DNA of 19,891 bases from a virus. The position numbers and the translations under genes were made by a program. Positions 6,756 to 19,891 of the stretch are shown here, in pieces. Location of the stretch: the UHGV virus genome UHGV-0140551, one strand, 5' to 3'. The notes under the pieces were generated by a model. The model saw nothing but the letters and a program-made list of their open reading frames with translations, did no database searches and was not told the DNA's origin. Position 1 is the stretch's first letter. The number at the start of each line of letters is the position of its first letter.

Positions 6756-6775
6756 TACTGTATAAATATACAGTA
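6756..6775. promoter_or_regulatory. LexA operator (SOS box) TACTGTATAAATATACAGTA
   Basis: CTGT-N8-ACAG with 19 of 20 matches to the consensus TACTGTATATATATACAGTA. It lies 20 bp upstream of the ORF at 6795 and overlaps an AT-rich -10-like region. Confidence 0.85.
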
Positions 6776-7214: not shown

Positions 7215-7220
7215 CAAACG

Positions 7221-7255
7221 CCGCCGGTGCTGAAACTTGCTTTCAGTGCTGGCGG
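7221..7255 (+). terminator. Stable hairpin immediately after the DinI-like stop codon (15-bp stem with G-U pairs, 5-nt loop); no clear U-tract
   Basis: CCGCCGGTGCTGAAA-cttgc-TTTCAGTGCTGGCGG. Could be a weak terminator, an RNA stability element or a processing site. Confidence 0.35.
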
Positions 7256-7347
7256 GGTTGAACAACGAGCTACGCGAGGCGTTAGCCGGTCATAGCGTCG
7301 CAAATACTTCAACCGTCTGCTGGTTAAATAATTCGAGGTTTTTGTAC

Positions 7348-7542
7348 ATGCAAAATCCCCTTTCATCGAAAAATGACCCGTTTGCCGATTGGGCAAAGAA
7401 TCTGACTTTAATGGCTTTAAATAACGACCTGAGCTCTCGCGAGGTGGAAAGCTACACCGCAAAAATGGTCGAGCAGGCCGGTAAAGATGAGCTATCAGTC
7501 GTTATCAAACACCTGTTAAATCACATCAGAATGCGCAAATAA
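7348..7542 (+). CDS. Small hypothetical protein (64 aa)
   Basis: Start trimmed to the ATG at 7348, which has a GAGG ribosome-binding site 8 nt upstream (MQNPLSSKNDPFADWAKN…). No recognisable motif. Confidence 0.45.
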   Translation: MQNPLSSKNDPFADWAKNLTLMALNNDLSSREVESYTAKMVEQAGKDELSVVIKHLLNHIRMRK

Positions 7543-7558
7543 GAGGAACTATATAAAT

Positions 7559-7660
7559 ATGTTATCTATCGTTTATGAAAATCCGTGGACGACGATTTTT
7601 CTGATGATTGTTGCCAGCATGTGCCTCAACAGTGTTATTGGCGCATTGCGCGGCCATTAA
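7559..7660 (+). CDS. Small hydrophobic, probably membrane-spanning peptide (33 aa), not in the supplied ORF track
   Basis: ATG at 7559 to TAA at 7658-7660, translating to MLSIVYENPWTTIFLMIVASMCLNSVIGALRGH. It starts 17 nt after the preceding ORF and is followed by a rho-independent terminator. Below the length cut-off of the ORF track. Confidence 0.35.
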   Translation: MLSIVYENPWTTIFLMIVASMCLNSVIGALRGH

Positions 7661-7682
7661 TCGCGACAAAACCAGACTAAAA

Positions 7683-7708
7683 CCGGCACCCTGAATGCCG
7701 GTTTTTTT
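7683..7708 (+). terminator. Rho-independent terminator ending the early/SOS operon (bidirectional architecture)
   Basis: CCGGCA-ccctgaa-TGCCGG followed by TTTTTTT, and preceded by an A-run. Confidence 0.8.
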
Positions 7709-7868
7709 ATGCCATTTTTCCGCGAATTTCCCGTTTTTTAGTCGTGCATGCATTAGGTGCATGGTTTTGCATGCGTCAGTCTTGCCCGTTCTGTCCGTGC
7801 GCCGCCAGAGCTAGCGCGGATCCAGAGTTGTCATGCAACTGCATTAAAACCGCCCCATAAAGCGGGCA

Positions 7869-7887
7869 GGCGTGGCGGGGAAAGCAT
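7869..7887. other. cos cohesive-end site (186-type)
   Basis: GGCGTGGCGGGGAAAGCAT matches, from memory, the 19-nt cohesive end of coliphage 186 and 17 of 19 positions of P2 cos (GGCGAGGCGGGGAAAGCAC). It lies between the replication gene and the portal remnant, as expected. Confidence 0.7.
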
Positions 7888-8106
7888 TGCGCGCCAGCAG
7901 TGATGCGTAATAATAAAAATTATCCTCTGAGCGCGTCGTGATGGCGCTGTCGTGGTCGCTGCTGGTTCGTTGGTGGTCGAGTGTGTTCGTGCGCGTGAGA
8001 CGCATCTGATGCGTGATGGTGGTGTGCATGGAAAAGCCACCAGGAGCAGCGGCTTTACAGGAGTGGCAGGATTCAAACTGCTAATTATGTTTCTACTATG
8101 ATTAAA

Positions 8107-9111
8107 CTAATTTACATGTATGTAGAGTTCACCGTCGCCAGACCAATCGGGACACTCTAAAACAAGCCCAAACTGCTTGAATATTTCATCAATGATTATT
8201 GTTATCTCCCGAAAATCACCAAAACCTGTAATGTGCTGGTCATTAAACTTCCCATAAAGATTCTGAAAAGCAATGCCTAATTCTGATAATTGATATCTTA
8301 TCTTTGAGTTGGATAGTGTAAGGGATAGCTTTGGATCGTATTCTTTAATATTGATGTTTAGAGAATGGACATAACCCATCGCATAAGCATAAGAGTTGAT
8401 GATTAGCCTGATACGTTTTTTTACTTCAAGATACATGTCATTCAGAGAAATATTACCGTACTTATAACCCCAGATGAGTTTTTCAATCTCGTCAGATACT
8501 TCATTTACAACAGTGTCAAGATTCTCTAAAAATAAATCGATAGTTTCTTGAGGGGCAGACCCCGAAGACATGTAATTAGCGAGATATTCAGACCATGCAC
8601 GCGTGGCTGAGATAAGAAGCGCGCTACCATACTCGTTGACTGTAAAGTTTTGGGCTAAGCATGTTAGTAAGTTTTTTTCATGTACGTGCACTAATTCATG
8701 GTGAATGCGATGGATGACTGCGAGGTATCCTTCTTCTTTCAGTTTTAAGAAGCTACCATCATTGAAAAGCTCAACAAAAAAATCAATCGATAGCACAAGG
8801 GTATATTCTTCACATAGCCCATCATTGCCAATTTTTGTTACTAACTGCCCGACGGCTGCGCCCTGTTTGCTATTGGTAAATGAACTAGGGGATTTGTGTT
8901 GGTAAGAGGATGTTACCTTTTGAAGAGCTTCACTGAAGTTATAGGAAACAATCACGCATTTTAATTTGGAGATATCAAGATTGAGATTTTTTGTTAAAGC
9001 TCGGATAGCTTCTAGTGTGAAATTACCGATATTATTTGCTTCTTGCTCAGTAGCGAAACCTTCGAGGGTTATTTTAAAATCAGTTTCCAAAATATTAATC
9101 TCCGCGCCCAT
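8107..9111 (-). CDS. AT-rich accessory protein with an HExxH (zinc-metallopeptidase-like) motif; candidate anti-phage or abortive-infection gene in the cos-portal hotspot
   Basis: 334-aa ORF of markedly lower GC than the flanking phage genes. It contains HRIHHELVHVHEKN (HELVH at residues 138-142), has no Walker A motif and no transmembrane segments, and sits where P2-like phages carry variable accessory genes. Confidence 0.7.
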   Translation of the reverse strand: MGAEINILETDFKITLEGFATEQEANNIGNFTLEAIRALTKNLNLDISKLKCVIVSYNFSEALQKVTSSYQHKSPSSFTNSKQGAAVGQLVTKIGNDGLCEEYTLVLSIDFFVELFNDGSFLKLKEEGYLAVIHRIHHELVHVHEKNLLTCLAQNFTVNEYGSALLISATRAWSEYLANYMSSGSAPQETIDLFLENLDTVVNEVSDEIEKLIWGYKYGNISLNDMYLEVKKRIRLIINSYAYAMGYVHSLNINIKEYDPKLSLTLSNSKIRYQLSELGIAFQNLYGKFNDQHITGFGDFREITIIIDEIFKQFGLVLECPDWSGDGELYIHVN

Positions 9112-9188: not shown

Positions 9189-9722
9189 TTATTCTGGGTT
9201 GTCGAGGGTGTACTCTTTGAATCTGATGACCTCCATGCCGAGCCAGTCATTTACCTCCCTGAACCTGTCCTGTAGCGGCGACAGCTCGTTGCGCACAAAT
9301 ACCTTTGCCACCTTCTCAACATCACCGAGTGAACCGATATTCTCGGGCTTGCCGCCCATGAGCTGGAACGGTACGCGGTGCGCGTCCATCAGATCGGCGG
9401 CACTGGCCTTCTTGATGTTGAAAAAGTCATCCTTTGTGGCGACCTCGCTCAGTGGCACGATTTTGATGCCGTCCGGTTTTCCGCCGGGAGCGTAGAAAAA
9501 CAGGTTCTTAAAGTTGCCGAGCCCTTTTGAGTTGCGCATCGCCTCGCGCAGCGATTCGACGTCGGTCGCGCTCTGCGCCGGGTCAGTCACATACATGATG
9601 TAGCCTGCGTGCGCGCCGTTCTGATAATACTTGCGGCGGAACAGCGTCGCGGATTCATTCAGCCAAGCGGAATTGACCGTCCAGTCAGCCGAGATTGTGC
9701 CGTACCAAATTGACGCGACGCT
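9189..9722 (-). pseudogene. Portal protein (P2 gpQ-like), 3' fragment only
   Basis: The frame is open from 9722 down to the stop at 9189, with a portal-like C-terminal translation (…FFYAPGGKPDGIKIVPLSEVATKDDFFNIK…VFVRNELSPLQDRFREVNDWLGMEVIRFKEY…). The N-terminal half is absent; a stop lies at 9723-9725 and a J-like frame begins on the opposite strand. Confidence 0.6.
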
Positions 9723-9969
9723 CTACGTTTACCCCGGCCCCGAGTCTGAGCCCATCAGGCAGGCATCAGAACAAAAGCTGCAGAGTTACATCAGCGCGCA
9801 GCACCGCCTCGGGCGTGATATCCGTCTGTCGGCCATTTACGCGGCGCTGCATGTTGAGGGGGTGCAGCGTGTCGAACTGGCATCACCGCAGGCCGACATT
9901 GTGCTGAGTAAGTCGCAGGCGTCGAATTGTACTGAGTACCAGATAACTATCGGGGGCTCGGATGAGTGA
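9700..9969 (+). pseudogene. Baseplate assembly protein J (P2 gpJ-like), C-terminal fragment only
   Basis: The translation …LYVYPGPESEPIRQ…QHRLGRDIRLSAIYAALHVEGVQRVELASP…ITIGGSDE resembles the gpJ C-terminus. Only about 90 residues are present and the stop overlaps the gpI start, as in P2. Confidence 0.6.
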
Positions 9970-10570: not shown

Positions 10571-11523
10571 CCGCAAAATATTTTGCCATTCTGACCAATC
10601 AGGGCGCGGCGCGGCTGGCGAACGCGGCGGCACTCGGTACCAAACTCAACCTGACGCAGATGGCCGTCGGTGATGCGAATGGTACGTTGCCGACCCCTGA
10701 CCCGGCGCAGACGAAGCTCATTAACCAGAAACGCATCGCGCCGCTGAACCTGCTGACCGTTGACCCGGCCAATACCAGTCAGATTATCGCGGAACAGATT
10801 ATTCCCGAGAATGAAGGTGGTTTCTGGATCCGCGAGATTGGTCTCTATGACGATGATGGTATTCTGATTGCCGTGGCGAACTGTCCGGAGACCTACAAGC
10901 CACAACTGCAGGAGGGAAGCGGTCGCACGCAGACCATTCGCATGATTCTGATTGTGTCGAACACATCGGCAATCACCCTGAAAATCGACCCGGCAGTCGT
11001 GCTGGCAACGCGCCAGTATGTCGACGACAAGATTATCGAGGTGAAAGGATATGCTGATAACCTGATGAAAAAACATGTTGAGGCCGCCAATCCACACAAG
11101 CAGTACCCGTTAATCGCTAATGCTCTGAAAGAAATGGTTGACGCGGGACTGGCCGGCGACGTTCTTAAAAACCTTGGTTTGGGAGAGGGAGCAAAATTAG
11201 GCGCAGCGGTGTGTGTGACCGGCTCTACAGGCTATATGACTATCCCGGCAATGGTCGCCGGGAAAGAACGGGTGATCATATTGCAGTGGTTTGGTGCTAC
11301 TACAACTGATTATGTGACACCAGTAACTGCGAATTTCCCTATTGCATTCCCAAATGAGTGCATGATTCCGTTATTTAGTGATGTATCAACTGGGGCAGTT
11401 GATTTGAGTTCTACAGCCGCATATAGCTTAGCGGTGGGCCGATCATACTATACGACGGTAACAAGAACTCAGATTACATGTGCTGGCTACGGTGGCTTTA
11501 GAGTTTTCGCGATTGGATGGTGA
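10567..11523 (+). CDS. Tail fibre protein (P2 gpH-like): constant N-terminal region fused to the currently expressed variable C-terminal segment
   Basis: N-terminus matches the conserved gpH start ([18 protein letters not shown]…[22 protein letters not shown]…[18 protein letters not shown]…). A recombination site lies inside the gene at 11162-11187. Confidence 0.85.
11162..11187. repeat. Invertase crossover site (hix/gix-like), left copy, inside the tail fibre gene
   Basis: TTCTTAAAAACCTTGGTTTGGGAGAG resembles hix/gix sites and is an imperfect inverted repeat of 12711-12736. Confidence 0.6.
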
Positions 11524-11948
11524 TTAATATGTTTTATTCTGCAAAAGAAAATGCGTTCTACGCTGATGAGCTAAAAAGTATTTATGAAAATGCAGGTAGC
11601 TGGCCTGACGATGCCGTTGAAGTAGACTATTCCGTATTCGTTGAGTTTGCCGGAGAATCACCTAACGGAAAATTACGCGCTCCTAATTCTGATGGTTTAC
11701 CTGAATGGATAGATATTCCCGAACCAACTGAAGAGGAAATTATTGCGTTGGCAGAAGCCGAAAAATCGCGACTGCGTGCTTCAGCTGACTCTGAAATAGA
11801 ATGGCGGCAGGACGCCGTTGATGCGGGGATCGCGACGGAAGAAGAAACTGTTTCATTAGCCGAATGGAAAAAATACCGGGTGCTGCTGATGCGAGTTGAT
11901 ACAGCAGACCCGGACTGGCCTACTCCTCCGGCGACTCAGGCCAGTTGA
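11517..11948 (+). CDS. Tail fibre assembly chaperone (gpG/U-like), paired with the current fibre tip
   Basis: 143-aa ORF with the typical motif [10 protein letters not shown]…WPDDAVEV…; an alternative start is the ATG at 11529. Its 3' end overlaps the convergent paralogue. Confidence 0.85.
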
Positions 11949-12351
11949 TATCTGGTGCGCTGGATATGTCCACAGATTCCAGCGCATCGAGATAATCCAG
12001 CCACTCGTTATACTGGGCCTTCTCGTCGTCTGTAAGTCGCCCCAGCGCAGCTTTACCCGGCCACTGCTTGCTGTTTATATACTCATTAGCCTGATCGATA
12101 CGATACTGTTTTTCAGCTTCAGCTGCTGCGATTTCCTCCTCATGGCTTAAAGGTGGAATGTCTACCCATGCCGGCATTCCATCCTCAGTAGCTCCACGAG
12201 TTTTACCCTCTGGTGGCATCCCCGAATATTCAGTGAATGTCTCATCTGAGACGGCTATGAGATCGTCAGGCCAGTTTCTACTCGCTTCATAAACATCTCT
12301 GAGCTCATCAGGGTAGAAAGCGTTATTTAATGCTGAATAAAAATAAGCCAT
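11920..12351 (-). CDS. Alternative tail fibre assembly chaperone (U'-like) in inverted orientation
   Basis: 143-aa paralogue ([22 protein letters not shown]…WPDDLIAV…) on the opposite strand, convergent with and overlapping the 11517-11948 gene by 29 nt. Confidence 0.8.
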
Positions 12352-12354
12352 TTA

Positions 12355-12726
12355 TTAATACCCCACAGCAAAATAGTTAAACCCGCCAGCGCCGATGGAT
12401 GATTCAGCGTTGGTTCCTGTCTGATAAGCGCGTAGCTGGAAATTAGTTCTCGTAAAATCCTGGGCGGTTAACGCAAAACCTTGACCTGTACCCCCAACAC
12501 TCTGGTCTGTTGCAACAACACATAGCGCCCTGGTTGGAAACGCAATCGGGAATGATACTGTTTCTGGGGATGTTCTCGTTATGGCTATTGCCCATTGAAG
12601 AATTAACCCGCCTGGCAGGTATTGATACCCCGAATCGGCTCGCTGATTACCAAATGAAGACATGTCCGGAATCTGTCCGGAACCAGTGCCAACATTTTTT
12701 TTTGCCGCATCTCCTAAACCAACCTT
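12355..12726 (-). CDS. Alternative tail fibre C-terminal segment (Sv'-like), lacking its own start; expressed only after inversion
   Basis: The frame is open from the recombination site at about 12726 to the stop at 12355. Its …KVGLGDAAKKNVGTGSGQIP… mirrors …[13 protein letters not shown]… at the left site, and its stop is followed by the chaperone start. Confidence 0.65.
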   Translation of the reverse strand, partial: KVGLGDAAKKNVGTGSGQIPDMSSFGNQRADSGYQYLPGGLILQWAIAITRTSPETVSFPIAFPTRALCVVATDQSVGGTGQGFALTAQDFTRTNFQLRAYQTGTNAESSIGAGGFNYFAVGY

Positions 12727-12736
12727 TTAGAAAATG
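12711..12736. repeat. Invertase crossover site (hix/gix-like), right copy
   Basis: CTCCTAAACCAACCTTTTAGAAAATG matches the reverse complement of 11162-11187 at about 18 of 24 positions. Confidence 0.55.
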
Positions 12737-12788
12737 CAGATATTCCGTTCAGCTGGCATGATCCCGACTTTTTACCGGGTTATTTCTC

Positions 12789-13031
12789 ATGTTTATCGGT
12801 TATGTACGTGTATCAACAAATGACCAGAACACCGCATTACAGCGAAATGAACTGGAGTGCGCAGGATGCGAGCTGATTTTCGAAGATAAAATCAGCGGCA
12901 AAACATCAGACTGGCCGGGGCTAAAGAGGTTACTCAGAACCTTGTCAGAGGGCGATACGCTTGTGGTCTGGAAACTGGATCGCCTCGGGTATCTCAACGC
13001 TATACAAAAAATTTCCCGCATCCGTTGCTGA
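12789..13031 (+). pseudogene. Serine DNA invertase (Gin/Hin/Pin family), truncated after about 68 conserved residues
   Basis: MFIGYVRVSTNDQNTALQRNELECAGCELIFEDKISGKT…GDTLVVWKLDRLG closely matches invertase N-termini, then diverges to 12 unrelated residues and a stop. The remaining catalytic part and the C-terminal DNA-binding HTH are missing. Confidence 0.8.
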
Positions 13032-15393: not shown

Positions 15394-17828
15394 TAACCTG
15401 AGACTTGAGGTTTTGCTGAAAGCGGTCGACCAGGCGACCCGACCGCTTAAATCCATCCAGACCGCGAGTAAAACCCTGTCGGGCGATATTCGCGAAACAC
15501 AAAAAGGGCTGCGTGACCTGAATGGTCAGGCGTCAAAAATCGACGGCTTTCGTAAGGCCAGTGCGCAACTGGCCGTGACCAGTCAGGCGCTTGAGAAAGC
15601 GAAACGCGAAGCCGGTGAACTGGCCGTGCAGTTTAAAAACTCCACCAGTCCGACCCGCGCGCAGGCGCAGGCACTCGAAGCGGCAAAGCGTGCTGCCTCT
15701 GAGCTACAGACGAAGTACAACAGTCTGAGAACGTCTGTACAGCGCCAGCGCTCCGAACTGATGCAGGCCGGTATTAATACCCGCACCCTTTCTGCCGATG
15801 AGCGTCGGCTCAAAACCTCCATCAGCGAAACGACGGCGCAGCTTAACCGCCAGCGTGAGGCACTCGCGCGTCAGTGCGCAGCAGGCGAAATTAGGCCGGG
15901 TGAAAGAGCGATATAAATCAGGCAAGGAGCTTGCCGGTAACATGGCCGCTGCAGGGGCTGCCGGGGTAGGTATCGCGACAGCGGGAACGATGGCCGGGGT
16001 GAAATTACTGATGCCCGGTTATGACTTTGCGCAGAAAAATTCCGAGCTGCAGGCCGTGCTCGGGGTCGATAAGCAGTCGCCAGAAATGGAGGCGCTACGC
16101 AAACAGGCACGCCAGCTCGGTGACAATACAGCCGCTTCTGCTGATGATGCAGCCAGTGCGCAGATTATTATCGCCAAAGGGGGCGGCGATGCGGCAGCCA
16201 TTCAGGCGACGACACCGGTCACCCTCAATATGGCGCTTGCCAACCGTCGCACGATGGAAGAAAACGCCGCATTACTGATGGGGATGCGCTCTGCGTTTCA
16301 GCTTTCCAATGACAAGGTGGCGCACATTGGCGACGTTCTGTCGACGGTGATGAATAAAACTGCTGCCGATTTCGACGGGCTGAGCGATGCGCTGACATAC
16401 GCCGCGCCGGTGGCGAAAAATGCCGGTGTCAGCATTGAAGAAACTGCCGCAATGGTGGGCGCCCTGCATGACGCCAAAATCACCGGCTCGATGGCCGGCA
16501 CCGGGAGCCGTGCGGTTTTAAGCCGCCTGCAGGCTCCGACCGGTAAAGCGTGGGATGCGCTTAAGGAGCTGGGGGTCAAAACTTCCGACAGTAAAGGCAA
16601 CACGCGCCCGATTTTTACCATCCTCAAGGAAATGCAGGCCAGTTTTGAGCGTAACAATCTCGGCACCGGTCAACAAGCCGAATACATGAAAACGATATTC
16701 GGTGAGGAAGCCAGTTCGGCGGCGGCGGTGCTCATGACTGCCGCCTCAACCGGCAAACTTGACCAGCTAACCTCCACCCTGAAAGCCTCAGACGGAAAAA
16801 CCGCAGAGCTTGTTAAAATTATGCAGGATAACTTAGGTGGCGACTTCAAAGAGTTTCAATCCGCTTATGAGGCCGTCGGTACCGACCTCTACGACCAGCA
16901 AGATAGCTCATTGCGTCAGCTAACTCAGACAGCAACACGGTATGTGCTAAAGCTTGATGACTGGATCAAAGACAACAAGGAGTTAGCGGAAACTATCGGC
17001 ATCATCGCCGGTGGTGCGCTGGCGCTGATTGGTATCATCGGCGGCATTGGTCTCGTTGCGTGGCCGGTTGTCATGGGGATTAATGCCATTATCGCCGCTG
17101 CTGGCGTGCTGGGTACGGTCTTTACTGTCGTCGGTAGTGCCATTGCGACAGCGCTCGGTGCGATTACCTGGCCGATAGTGGCCGTCGGTGCGGCGATTGT
17201 GGCGGGGGCGCTACTCATCCGTAAATATTGGGAGCCCATCAGCGCATTTTTCTCGGGAGTGATTGAGGGCATCATGAGTGCCTTTGCCCCAGTCGGGGAA
17301 ATGTTCGCTCCACTGGCTCCCATTTTTGATGGTCTCGGCGAGAAACTGCGCGGCGTCTGGCAGTGGTTTAAAGACCTGATAGCACCGGTTAAGGCCACGC
17401 AGGAAACGCTTGATAGCTGCAAAAGTGTCGGCGTCATATTTGGTCAGGCACTGGCCTCTGCCTTGATGGCTCCGCTCAATGTTTTTAACAAGCTGCGCAG
17501 CGGTGTCGACTGGCTTCTCGAAAAGCTCGGCATCATCAACAAAGAGTCGGACAGCCTCGACCAGACCGCCGCCAAAACCAATGCCGCCACACAGGGTAAT
17601 TCCTACATCCCGGCAACCAGCACATATGGCGGCTATCAGGCTTATCAGCCAGTTACCGCACCGGCGGGGCGCTCTTACATTGACCAGAGCAAAAGCGAAT
17701 ACAACATCAATCTGCCGGGAGGTGTTGCGCCGGGGCATCAGCTTGACAGACAACTACGCGACACGCTCGAACAGATTGAGCGCGATAAACGCGCCCGCCA
17801 GCGTGCCAACATGACCCACGACTATTGA
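15386..17828 (+). pseudogene. Tail tape-measure protein (P2 gpT-like), split by a frameshift at about 15865-15871
   Basis: Two ORFs (15386-15916 and 15798-17828) together cover a gpT-like protein. The frame switches between …QREALAR and VSAQQAKLG… inside a CGCGCG tract, consistent with a 2-nt contraction of a CG repeat. Confidence 0.7.
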
Positions 17829-19568: not shown

Positions 19569-19787
19569 ATGATGCACTGCCCGTTATGCCAAAACGCCGC
19601 ACATGCTCGCACTAGCCGGTACCTTAGCACCGAAACAAAAGAACGTTATCACCAGTGCCAGAACATAAATTGCGGATGTACATTTATCACTTTTGAGACG
19701 CTATCAAGATTCATTGTGAAACCGGGTACTGTTGATCCTGCTCCGCCACACCCCATCAGAAACCAACAACAGCAACTTTGGCTTTGA
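19569..19787 (+). CDS. ogr: Ogr/Delta-family zinc-finger late-gene transcription activator
   Basis: MMHCPLCQNAAHARTSRYLSTETKERYHQCQNINCGCTFITFE closely matches P2 Ogr (CxxC…CxxxxC zinc finger). The longer ORF N-terminus is rejected. Confidence 0.9.
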   Translation: MMHCPLCQNAAHARTSRYLSTETKERYHQCQNINCGCTFITFETLSRFIVKPGTVDPAPPHPIRNQQQQLWL

Positions 19788-19862: not shown

Positions 19863-19891
19863 AAAAAAGGGGTTAGCAATTCGCTAACCCC
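19863..19891 (-). terminator. Rho-independent terminator of a leftward-transcribed flanking (host) gene
   Basis: GGGGTTAGC-aattc-GCTAACCCC preceded on the plus strand by AAAAAA, which is a U-tract on the minus strand. It lies just outside attR. Confidence 0.6.

Follow-up and report, generated by a model that had tools for sequence, protein, structure and literature searches.

Whether a cos site can still serve an element that has neither terminase nor capsid genes is the question raised by positions 7709–8106 of the window, that is, of the whole stretch of DNA analyzed. The original prediction held that an intact 186-type cos had been kept here, together with replication and regulatory genes, in a capsid-less element of about 19.7 kb that a co-resident P2/186-like helper could package in trans. 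The actual length is 19,891 bp. The explanation that we regard as quite probable is a plainer one: the region is an orphan, ancestral 186-like cos in a prophage crippled by a 9,933-bp deletion, and the element excises, probably replicates, and stays behind as an unpackaged circle.

A 19-nt cohesive end, GGCGTGGCGGGGAAAGCAT, lies on the plus strand at 7869–7887. It matches exactly the annotated cos of phage 186 (U32222.1) and of PSP3 (AY135486.1), and the site is therefore intact and of 186 type, as had been predicted. The cohesive ends of P2 and P4 depart from this 19-mer at two positions. Within the family pattern GGCG[T/A]GGCGGGGAAAGCA[T/C] it represents the 186/PSP3 variant, which is the commonest one among 110 cos regions of IMG/VR. 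Its placement is also that of the family, with the replication/SOS region on one side and the leftward portal-terminase operon on the other. On the left of cos are replicase A, a LexA box, a DinI-like ORF and a terminator; on the right are a tW-like terminator and a remnant of the portal gene, with a 1-kb insertion between these two.

Positions 7709–8106 are effectively non-coding, bounded by a terminator at 7679–7705 and by the stop codon, at 8107, of a 334-residue ORF. The cos region itself has two terminators as its limits, and its extent of about 400 bp of non-coding DNA is as predicted. The left terminator (7679–7705) is a Rho-independent hairpin, an inverted repeat with a 12-pair stem and T-runs on both sides, which ends the rightward SOS operon in the position of t95b of 186. 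The right one, at 8031–8056 on the minus strand, serves the leftward portal operon, is the equivalent of 186 tW and P2 tQ, and forms the right edge of the ancestral cos region; its computed stem covers 8036–8050, and the wider limits were read from the alignment with tW and tQ. Between them, alignment and the conservation profile delimit a core block at 7832–7895 that is common to 186, PSP3, P2 and P4. A dyad at 7850–7869 abuts the cut site in this block, and the conserved TGCGCGCC follows directly to the right. An Rfam scan of 7400–8300 for RNA families gave sub-threshold matches only.

RefSeq annotates a single ORF within 7709–8106. It encodes a 61-residue hypothetical protein (WP_000557532.1, in the sibling prophage described below; L002 9291–9476) and runs across the cos cut site at 7844–8029 on the minus strand. 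It was rejected as a real gene, having no family match and a frame that is broken by 1-nt indels relative to 186 and PSP3, and is probably a spurious gene call.

Compared with the cos of 186 and PSP3 (Peduoviridae, Eganvirus), the region has an identical 19-nt end, a right flank that is 86–88% identical as far as the portal-operon terminator, a left flank with the same TGCATG block and dyad, and the same placement between SOS operon and portal gene. It differs in that the 1-kb insertion with the 334-residue ORF parts the terminator from the portal gene, and in that its cognate terminase is gone, along with the capsid genes and most of portal. Judged by its sequence, the region is an ordinary packaging site, the ancestral cos of a temperate E. 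coli phage of the 186/PSP3-like kind (Eganvirus). It agrees with the P2/186-family (Peduoviridae) cos in every feature that can be tested, and cleavage at this site, with 5′ cohesive ends as the product, is predicted. The case is a routine one, in which a prophage crippled not long ago carries a packaging site of a familiar type.

The repeats beside cos had been put forward as possible terminase-binding elements. The motifs are indeed there: GATGCGT occurs at 7902–7908 and 8008–8014, with its reverse complement at 8000–8006, and CGTGATGG occurs at 7937–7944 and 8012–8019. Each of the two is rarer than in dinucleotide shuffles, a test applied only after the motifs had been picked, and when all 7-mers and 8-mers repeated in the region are counted without bias, there is no excess over such shuffles (P = 0.13–0.7). 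Both motifs lie in a GT-rich right flank, 7896–8030, defined by alignment, profile and shuffles. This flank shows moderate conservation among P2/186-like phages, and the P4-like satellites (n = 26) lack it. In the alignment, GATGCGT is not conserved in 186 or PSP3.

A helper-versus-satellite comparison shows which parts of the flanks are shared. By a search pattern confined to the core, 103 distinct cos regions were drawn from IMG/VR and sorted by neighboring gene, 73 lying beside portal (P2-like phages) and 26 beside psu (P4-like satellites). Columns 7846–7886 of the resulting conservation profile are fixed by the search pattern, and the other columns are free. The two groups have only about 7743–7895 in common, a span of some 150 bp from about −126 to +27. 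Outside the pattern-fixed columns they share the TGCATG-rich stretch at 7743–7777, positions 7832–7845, and TGCGCGCC at 7888–7895; both 7743–7777 and 7832–7895 are 80–100% conserved in the P2-like and in the P4-like group. To the right, from 7896 on, the satellites are unrelated, and moderate similarity among the phages reaches as far as the terminator of the portal operon.

Since the satellites use the same terminase as the phages, the shared span of about 150 bp (7743–7895) is likely to be the terminase recognition region. TGCAT occurs seven times and TGCATG five times in 7740–7868, and none of 2,000 shuffles matched these counts. From conservation and this enrichment, the TGCATG-rich block at 7743–7777 emerges as the strongest candidate for an element left of cos that the terminase recognizes. 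GATGCGT and CGTGATGG in the right flank were dismissed as the primary recognition signal, because the P4-like satellites are without this flank and GATGCGT is unconserved in 186 and PSP3; it is thus unlikely that these repeats are the terminase-binding elements they were taken for. The map obtained, which shows the cos flanks common to all users of a P2-family terminase, agrees with the account in the literature of a core cos signal common to P2 and P4 (Ziermann and Calendar 1990, as relayed in PMC9122126 and PMC2231350). The P2/P4 terminase takes closed circles as its substrate, with a cos of 55 bp (PMC2231350). PMC9611059 and PMC7552001 hold nothing on P2 cos recognition or size limits.

The history of the element can be read from an intact sibling, a prophage of 30.5 kb between yfiB and rplS in E. 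coli 1008S13. The shared blocks are 99.8–100% identical to this prophage, and the cos region (7699–8118) is identical. Block-wise comparison shows that 9,933 bp of the 1008S13 prophage are missing from the window. The missing stretch begins with the N-terminal part of the portal gene and the genes for large terminase, scaffold, major capsid, small terminase and head completion, and continues through X, holin, endolysin, LysB/C, R, S, V and W to the N-terminal part of J. The breakpoints share 1 nt of microhomology, and this 1-nt overlap lies at the deletion junction, 9674–9675, which recurs in independent contigs. According to annotation and comparison with the sibling, the portal remnant (9189–9674, minus strand) comprises the C-terminal 162 of 348 codons, and the remnant of baseplate gene J (9675–9969, plus strand) the C-terminal 98 codons or so.

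The tape-measure gene, on the plus strand, carries a second lesion: compared with the 1008S13 prophage it has lost 2 nt at 15864–15865, which shifts its frame. Intact relatives, among isolates and sequencing runs, are 100% identical right of the junction, have the same fiber module, and carry complete V, W and J. The remaining 19,891 bp amount to about 65–67% of the parental genome of about 30 kb. Near-identity to an intact phage, the 9,933-bp deletion and the 2-nt frameshift are together what a defective prophage would show, and by this comparison the element is a recent, doubly damaged deletion derivative of a 186-like prophage.

The tape-measure gene is split at 15864/15865 into fragments of 176 and about 628 residues, and the 176-residue piece is found only in contigs of this lineage. 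A 69-bp sequence is present in a single copy in the window (7217–7285) and as two direct repeats in 1008S13. The window is without 405 bp, an interval that includes one of the 69-bp repeats and carries an ORF of 69 residues in 1008S13.

The gene map is of the 186 type by PHROG, Pfam and RefSeq annotation. It starts with integrase, a YebY-like ORF, CI, an ORF in the Apl/Cox position, CII, Fil, a TraR/DksA-like ORF and replicase A. The LexA box, a 60-residue ORF, a DinI-family ORF, cos, the 334-residue ORF of low G+C, and the portal and J remnants come next. They are followed by I, a tail fiber with its chaperone, an inverted alternative fiber/chaperone module and a truncated invertase, and the map ends with sheath, tube, E, tape measure, U, D and an activator of the Ogr/Delta family. 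Integrase, CI, CII, replicase A, the SOS operon and Ogr/B are thus retained, and the claim that replication and regulatory genes accompany cos holds. The description as capsid-less is right in that terminase, capsid, scaffold and lysis genes are absent, but makes no mention of the portal remnant and a block of about 10 kb of tail genes.

A perfect LexA box, CTGTATAAATATACAG, lies at 6758–6773 on the plus strand, upstream of the 60-residue and DinI-family ORFs, and box and ORFs occupy the position of the p95/tum SOS operon of 186. The box suggests that the element is still SOS-inducible. The late-gene activator of the Ogr/Delta family, at 19569–19787 on the plus strand, is identified by family searches as a homologue of 186 B.

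The tail-fiber module is of the invertible type. At 11517–13031, a fiber C-terminus and chaperone are followed by an inverted alternative chaperone and fiber C-terminus. The invertase gene beside the module is cut to 80 residues, and it is a pseudogene in 1008S13 as well. The segment 11187–12699 of the module has no megablast match in 1008S13, and intact relatives with the same module exist.

Whether such an element should be called a satellite can be judged from its genes. A satellite would have no virion structural genes of its own; here sheath, tube, E, tape measure (frameshifted), U, D, I, tail fiber and chaperone are present. Genes for exploiting a helper or redirecting its capsid (sid, psu, delta, epsilon) and an independent replicon are both lacking: all ORFs with an assigned function are 186-type genes, the replicon is the phage's own A, and only the ancestral Ogr/B is present. 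As in a satellite, the cos matches the terminase of a helper. Because structural genes are present and piracy genes are not, the element is not a P4-like satellite.

P4 and P4-like satellites share with the element the P2-family cos core (window 7743–7895), an integrase and an Ogr/Delta-family activator, and the packaging substrate of P4 is a closed circle (PMC2231350). P4, however, is an evolved element of 11.6 kb with its own replicon, sid, psu, delta and epsilon, and no tail genes, whereas the present element is a 186-like phage with a hole, and the two have nothing in common right of about +27. No psu homologue is present in the element; a tblastn search with psu matched small P4-like loci only. 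The cos-type SaPIs, and other satellites with a copy of the helper's cos, are likewise terminase-less elements that depend on a cos matched to the helper (PMC5052747). They differ in belonging to an unrelated lineage with Gram-positive hosts and in having evolved piracy with interference genes, none of which are seen here.

Defective (cryptic) prophages of E. coli resemble the element in the combination of a large deletion with a structural-gene frameshift, in the phage att site, and in near-identity to intact relatives. Unlike them, it still excises, and its regulatory/replication module is complete and its packaging site unaltered. A single recent deletion with a 1-nt breakpoint match, a frameshifted tape measure and some 10 kb of now-useless tail genes argue against a dedicated capsid-less satellite. 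On its gene content, the element is a defective prophage and not an evolved satellite, and nothing in it suggests satellite evolution.

The window, read from its two ends, is the excised circular attP form, with position 19891 joined to 1. This joint is contiguous in the attR of 1008S13, and position 43 onward matches attL, by which attP is reconstituted. The 13-bp att core, AGTTAAGACGCTC, was located by comparison of attL and attR at 43–55, at the 3′ end of rplS. The window corresponds to NODE_1_length_19946, a contig of ERZ1754902, less a 55-nt overlap. The start of the contig (window 1–55) is the last 55-mer common to attP and attR; a break of the SPAdes contig here, at a branch of the assembly graph, would imply integrated copies in the same sample, which suggests that excised and integrated forms coexisted in ERZ1754902.

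The same deletion junction is found in circular contigs of ERZ1755190, ERZ1755283 and ERZ1755337, and in integrated contigs with host flanks from ERZ1755106 (both attL and attR) and from a separate MEGAHIT assembly, ERZ27234110. Integration is at the phage att site, attL having the yfiB/dgcN flank (L006, L010) and attR the rplS-trmD-rimM flank (L157, L158). Thus SPAdes and MEGAHIT contigs from at least two submissions carry the junction, integrated (yfiB/rplS) as well as circular. The deletion and the excision are both real. A search of 5,426 complete E. coli genomes, PLSDB plasmids, GenBank phages, IMG/VR and GTDB representatives did not find the junction, which was matched only in a metagenome collection and an assembly index.

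A course of events is proposed for the crippled prophage. In the intact phage, the terminase would recognize the closed circular genome, nick it at 7869 and 7887, 19 nt apart, and bring the DNA into the prohead. A single illegitimate deletion of 9,933 bp took away the cognate terminase together with capsid, scaffold and lysis genes; most of portal and a portion of the baseplate went with them. With its cognate terminase deleted, the cos is therefore an orphan. That it is unchanged may be ascribed to the recency of the deletion, and the site is probably an unselected relic.

Excision is retained, as the contigs in attP form show. After SOS induction the circle would excise and replicate, and being able neither to be packaged nor to lyse the cell, circles would accumulate. 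The excised circle probably replicates, and replication of an unpackageable circle would account for the finding that in several assemblies circles are no less common than integrated copies. For the orphan cos to be cut and its DNA packaged, the terminase would have to come from a P2-family phage of another immunity type, either resident in the same cell or superinfecting it.

Cutting and packaging by a terminase in trans is possible in principle by analogy with cosmids, and since cosmids with such a cos are packaged by P2, it is biochemically plausible. According to the literature, packaging in trans is open to any circle with a P2-family cos (PMC2231350, PMC9942202). P2/P4-cos cosmids of 5–10 kb were packaged (PMC2231350), and a cos plasmid was packaged by a P2 lysogen with its own cos deleted, the yield being best at P2 or P4 length (PMC9942202). 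Multimeric P4 DNA fills heads of P2 size (bioRxiv 10.64898/2026.03.30.715334, citing Shore 1978). The cosmids (P4cos-3, -5, -8 and pACK57) are like the element in being circular replicons with a P2-family cos and no packaging genes (PMC2231350, PMC9942202). They are unlike it in being laboratory constructs with demonstrated transduction, the element being a natural one known from sequence, and its 19.9 kb, about 65–67% of the parental genome, compares with the P2 or P4 length at which cosmids are best packaged. The proposal of helper packaging in trans is thus feasible by the literature on cos circles, but the public assemblies show no sign of packaging: cos is uncut, host flanks are present, and no contig of helper length outranks the element.

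That the element acts as an accidental satellite, excising and replicating after SOS induction, with its Ogr/B switching on the late genes of a co-resident P2-family prophage whose terminase then cuts the cos of the element and packages the 19.9-kb circle into full-size capsids, by which it would spread, is improbable, although several observations fit. The cos region is the same as that of the intact sibling, and integrase, A, the LexA box and the Ogr/Delta-family gene are kept. The trans-packaging of P2/P4-cos cosmids, with under-length DNA accepted, and of multimeric P4 DNA in P2-size heads, provides a precedent. Circles in attP form are at least as common as integrated copies in several assemblies, and the element has about 3.5 times the k-mer coverage of the neighboring chromosome in ERZ1755106, a rough estimate from contig coverages. 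As the longest contig in several assemblies, and at this coverage, the circular form would also fit encapsidated DNA, which counts against our main reading.

The same holds for the host flanks. Two attL contigs, L006 and L010, have no differences over 11,250 bp of the element, and their yfiB flanks (L006 15048–15532 against L010 11251–11735) differ at 2 of 485 positions. An identical element beside differing host flanks might be a sign that it has moved from host to host. The two SNPs could stem from distinct hosts, from a recombination tract, or from a consensus over mixed strains at low coverage, and the last of these weakens them as a sign of transfer.

Several findings stand against accidental packaging. 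Every contig passes uncut through cos, the place at which mature virion DNA would have its ends, and host chromosome flanks were assembled from the same samples of the same study. The 9674 junction is passed without a branch and the element is the longest contig, which points to neither a near-identical sibling nor a fully assembled 30-kb helper being evident. The element has no satellite-type genes or sign of adaptation, and it carries some 10 kb of tail genes, among which the tape measure is broken. The retained CI would repress a helper of the same immunity type. In addition, the junction is missing from the 5,426 complete E. coli genomes and from IMG/VR.

A related reading is that the one deletion made an instant proto-satellite, whose SOS-induced circles are packaged and spread beside a P2-family phage of another immunity type. 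Such a proto-satellite would keep excision, replication, Ogr/B and cos, being without lysis and head genes, and the over-represented circles and the identical element beside slightly different host flanks would be traces of its spread. We consider this distinctly improbable. If helper-dependent transfer were true, the element would document one route for the origin of phage satellites. On the preferred reading, of an orphan cos in a defective prophage, its value is modest: it is a natural example of a possible satellite beginning, in which cos, excision, replication and a late-gene activator were left by one deletion.

It is very improbable that the 19.9-kb circle is a stably kept plasmid-like replicon (a phage-plasmid state) instead of a transient excision product. 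Circular contigs recur, replicase A and the origin are retained, and the circle is over-represented relative to the host flank, all of which would suit a plasmid. Integrated copies with both att junctions nevertheless occur in the same study, and the contig break at the last 55-mer shared by attP and attR implies integrated copies in the same sample. No partition or plasmid-maintenance gene was named by PHROG or Pfam among the ORFs tested. Neither 186 nor P2 is known to persist as a plasmid.

That the deletion and the circle are assembly artefacts, the true sequence being an intact 30-kb prophage, is hardly credible: the k-mer coverage is low (about 5.4–5.7) and several of the assemblies probably come from one study, yet SPAdes (k = 55) and MEGAHIT (k = 119) assemblies of different submissions have exactly this junction in common, in integrated as well as circular contigs, and the 13-bp att core is shorter than k, so that this direct repeat cannot close a false circle, and the contig holds attP-specific k-mers.

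The element is the longest or near-longest contig, with a k-mer coverage of about 5.1–6.5, across ERZ1754891–ERZ1755337 (ENA), and it was met in Logan runs SRR1214034–SRR1215958. Similar coverage across what is apparently one large study suggests a common source strain or replicate runs. The sample accessions gave no match in a literature search.

The 334-residue ORF between cos and the portal gene (8107–9111, minus strand, 38% G+C) has no assigned function. Searches of Pfam, PADLOC, NCBIfam and PDB sequences gave no match, and PHROG matches were to families of unknown function only. At least 26 complete E. coli genomes carry the ORF, as does phage vB_EcoM-613R3. Its place is the variable hotspot beside cos, in which anti-phage systems of P2-like phages are located (PMC9122126).
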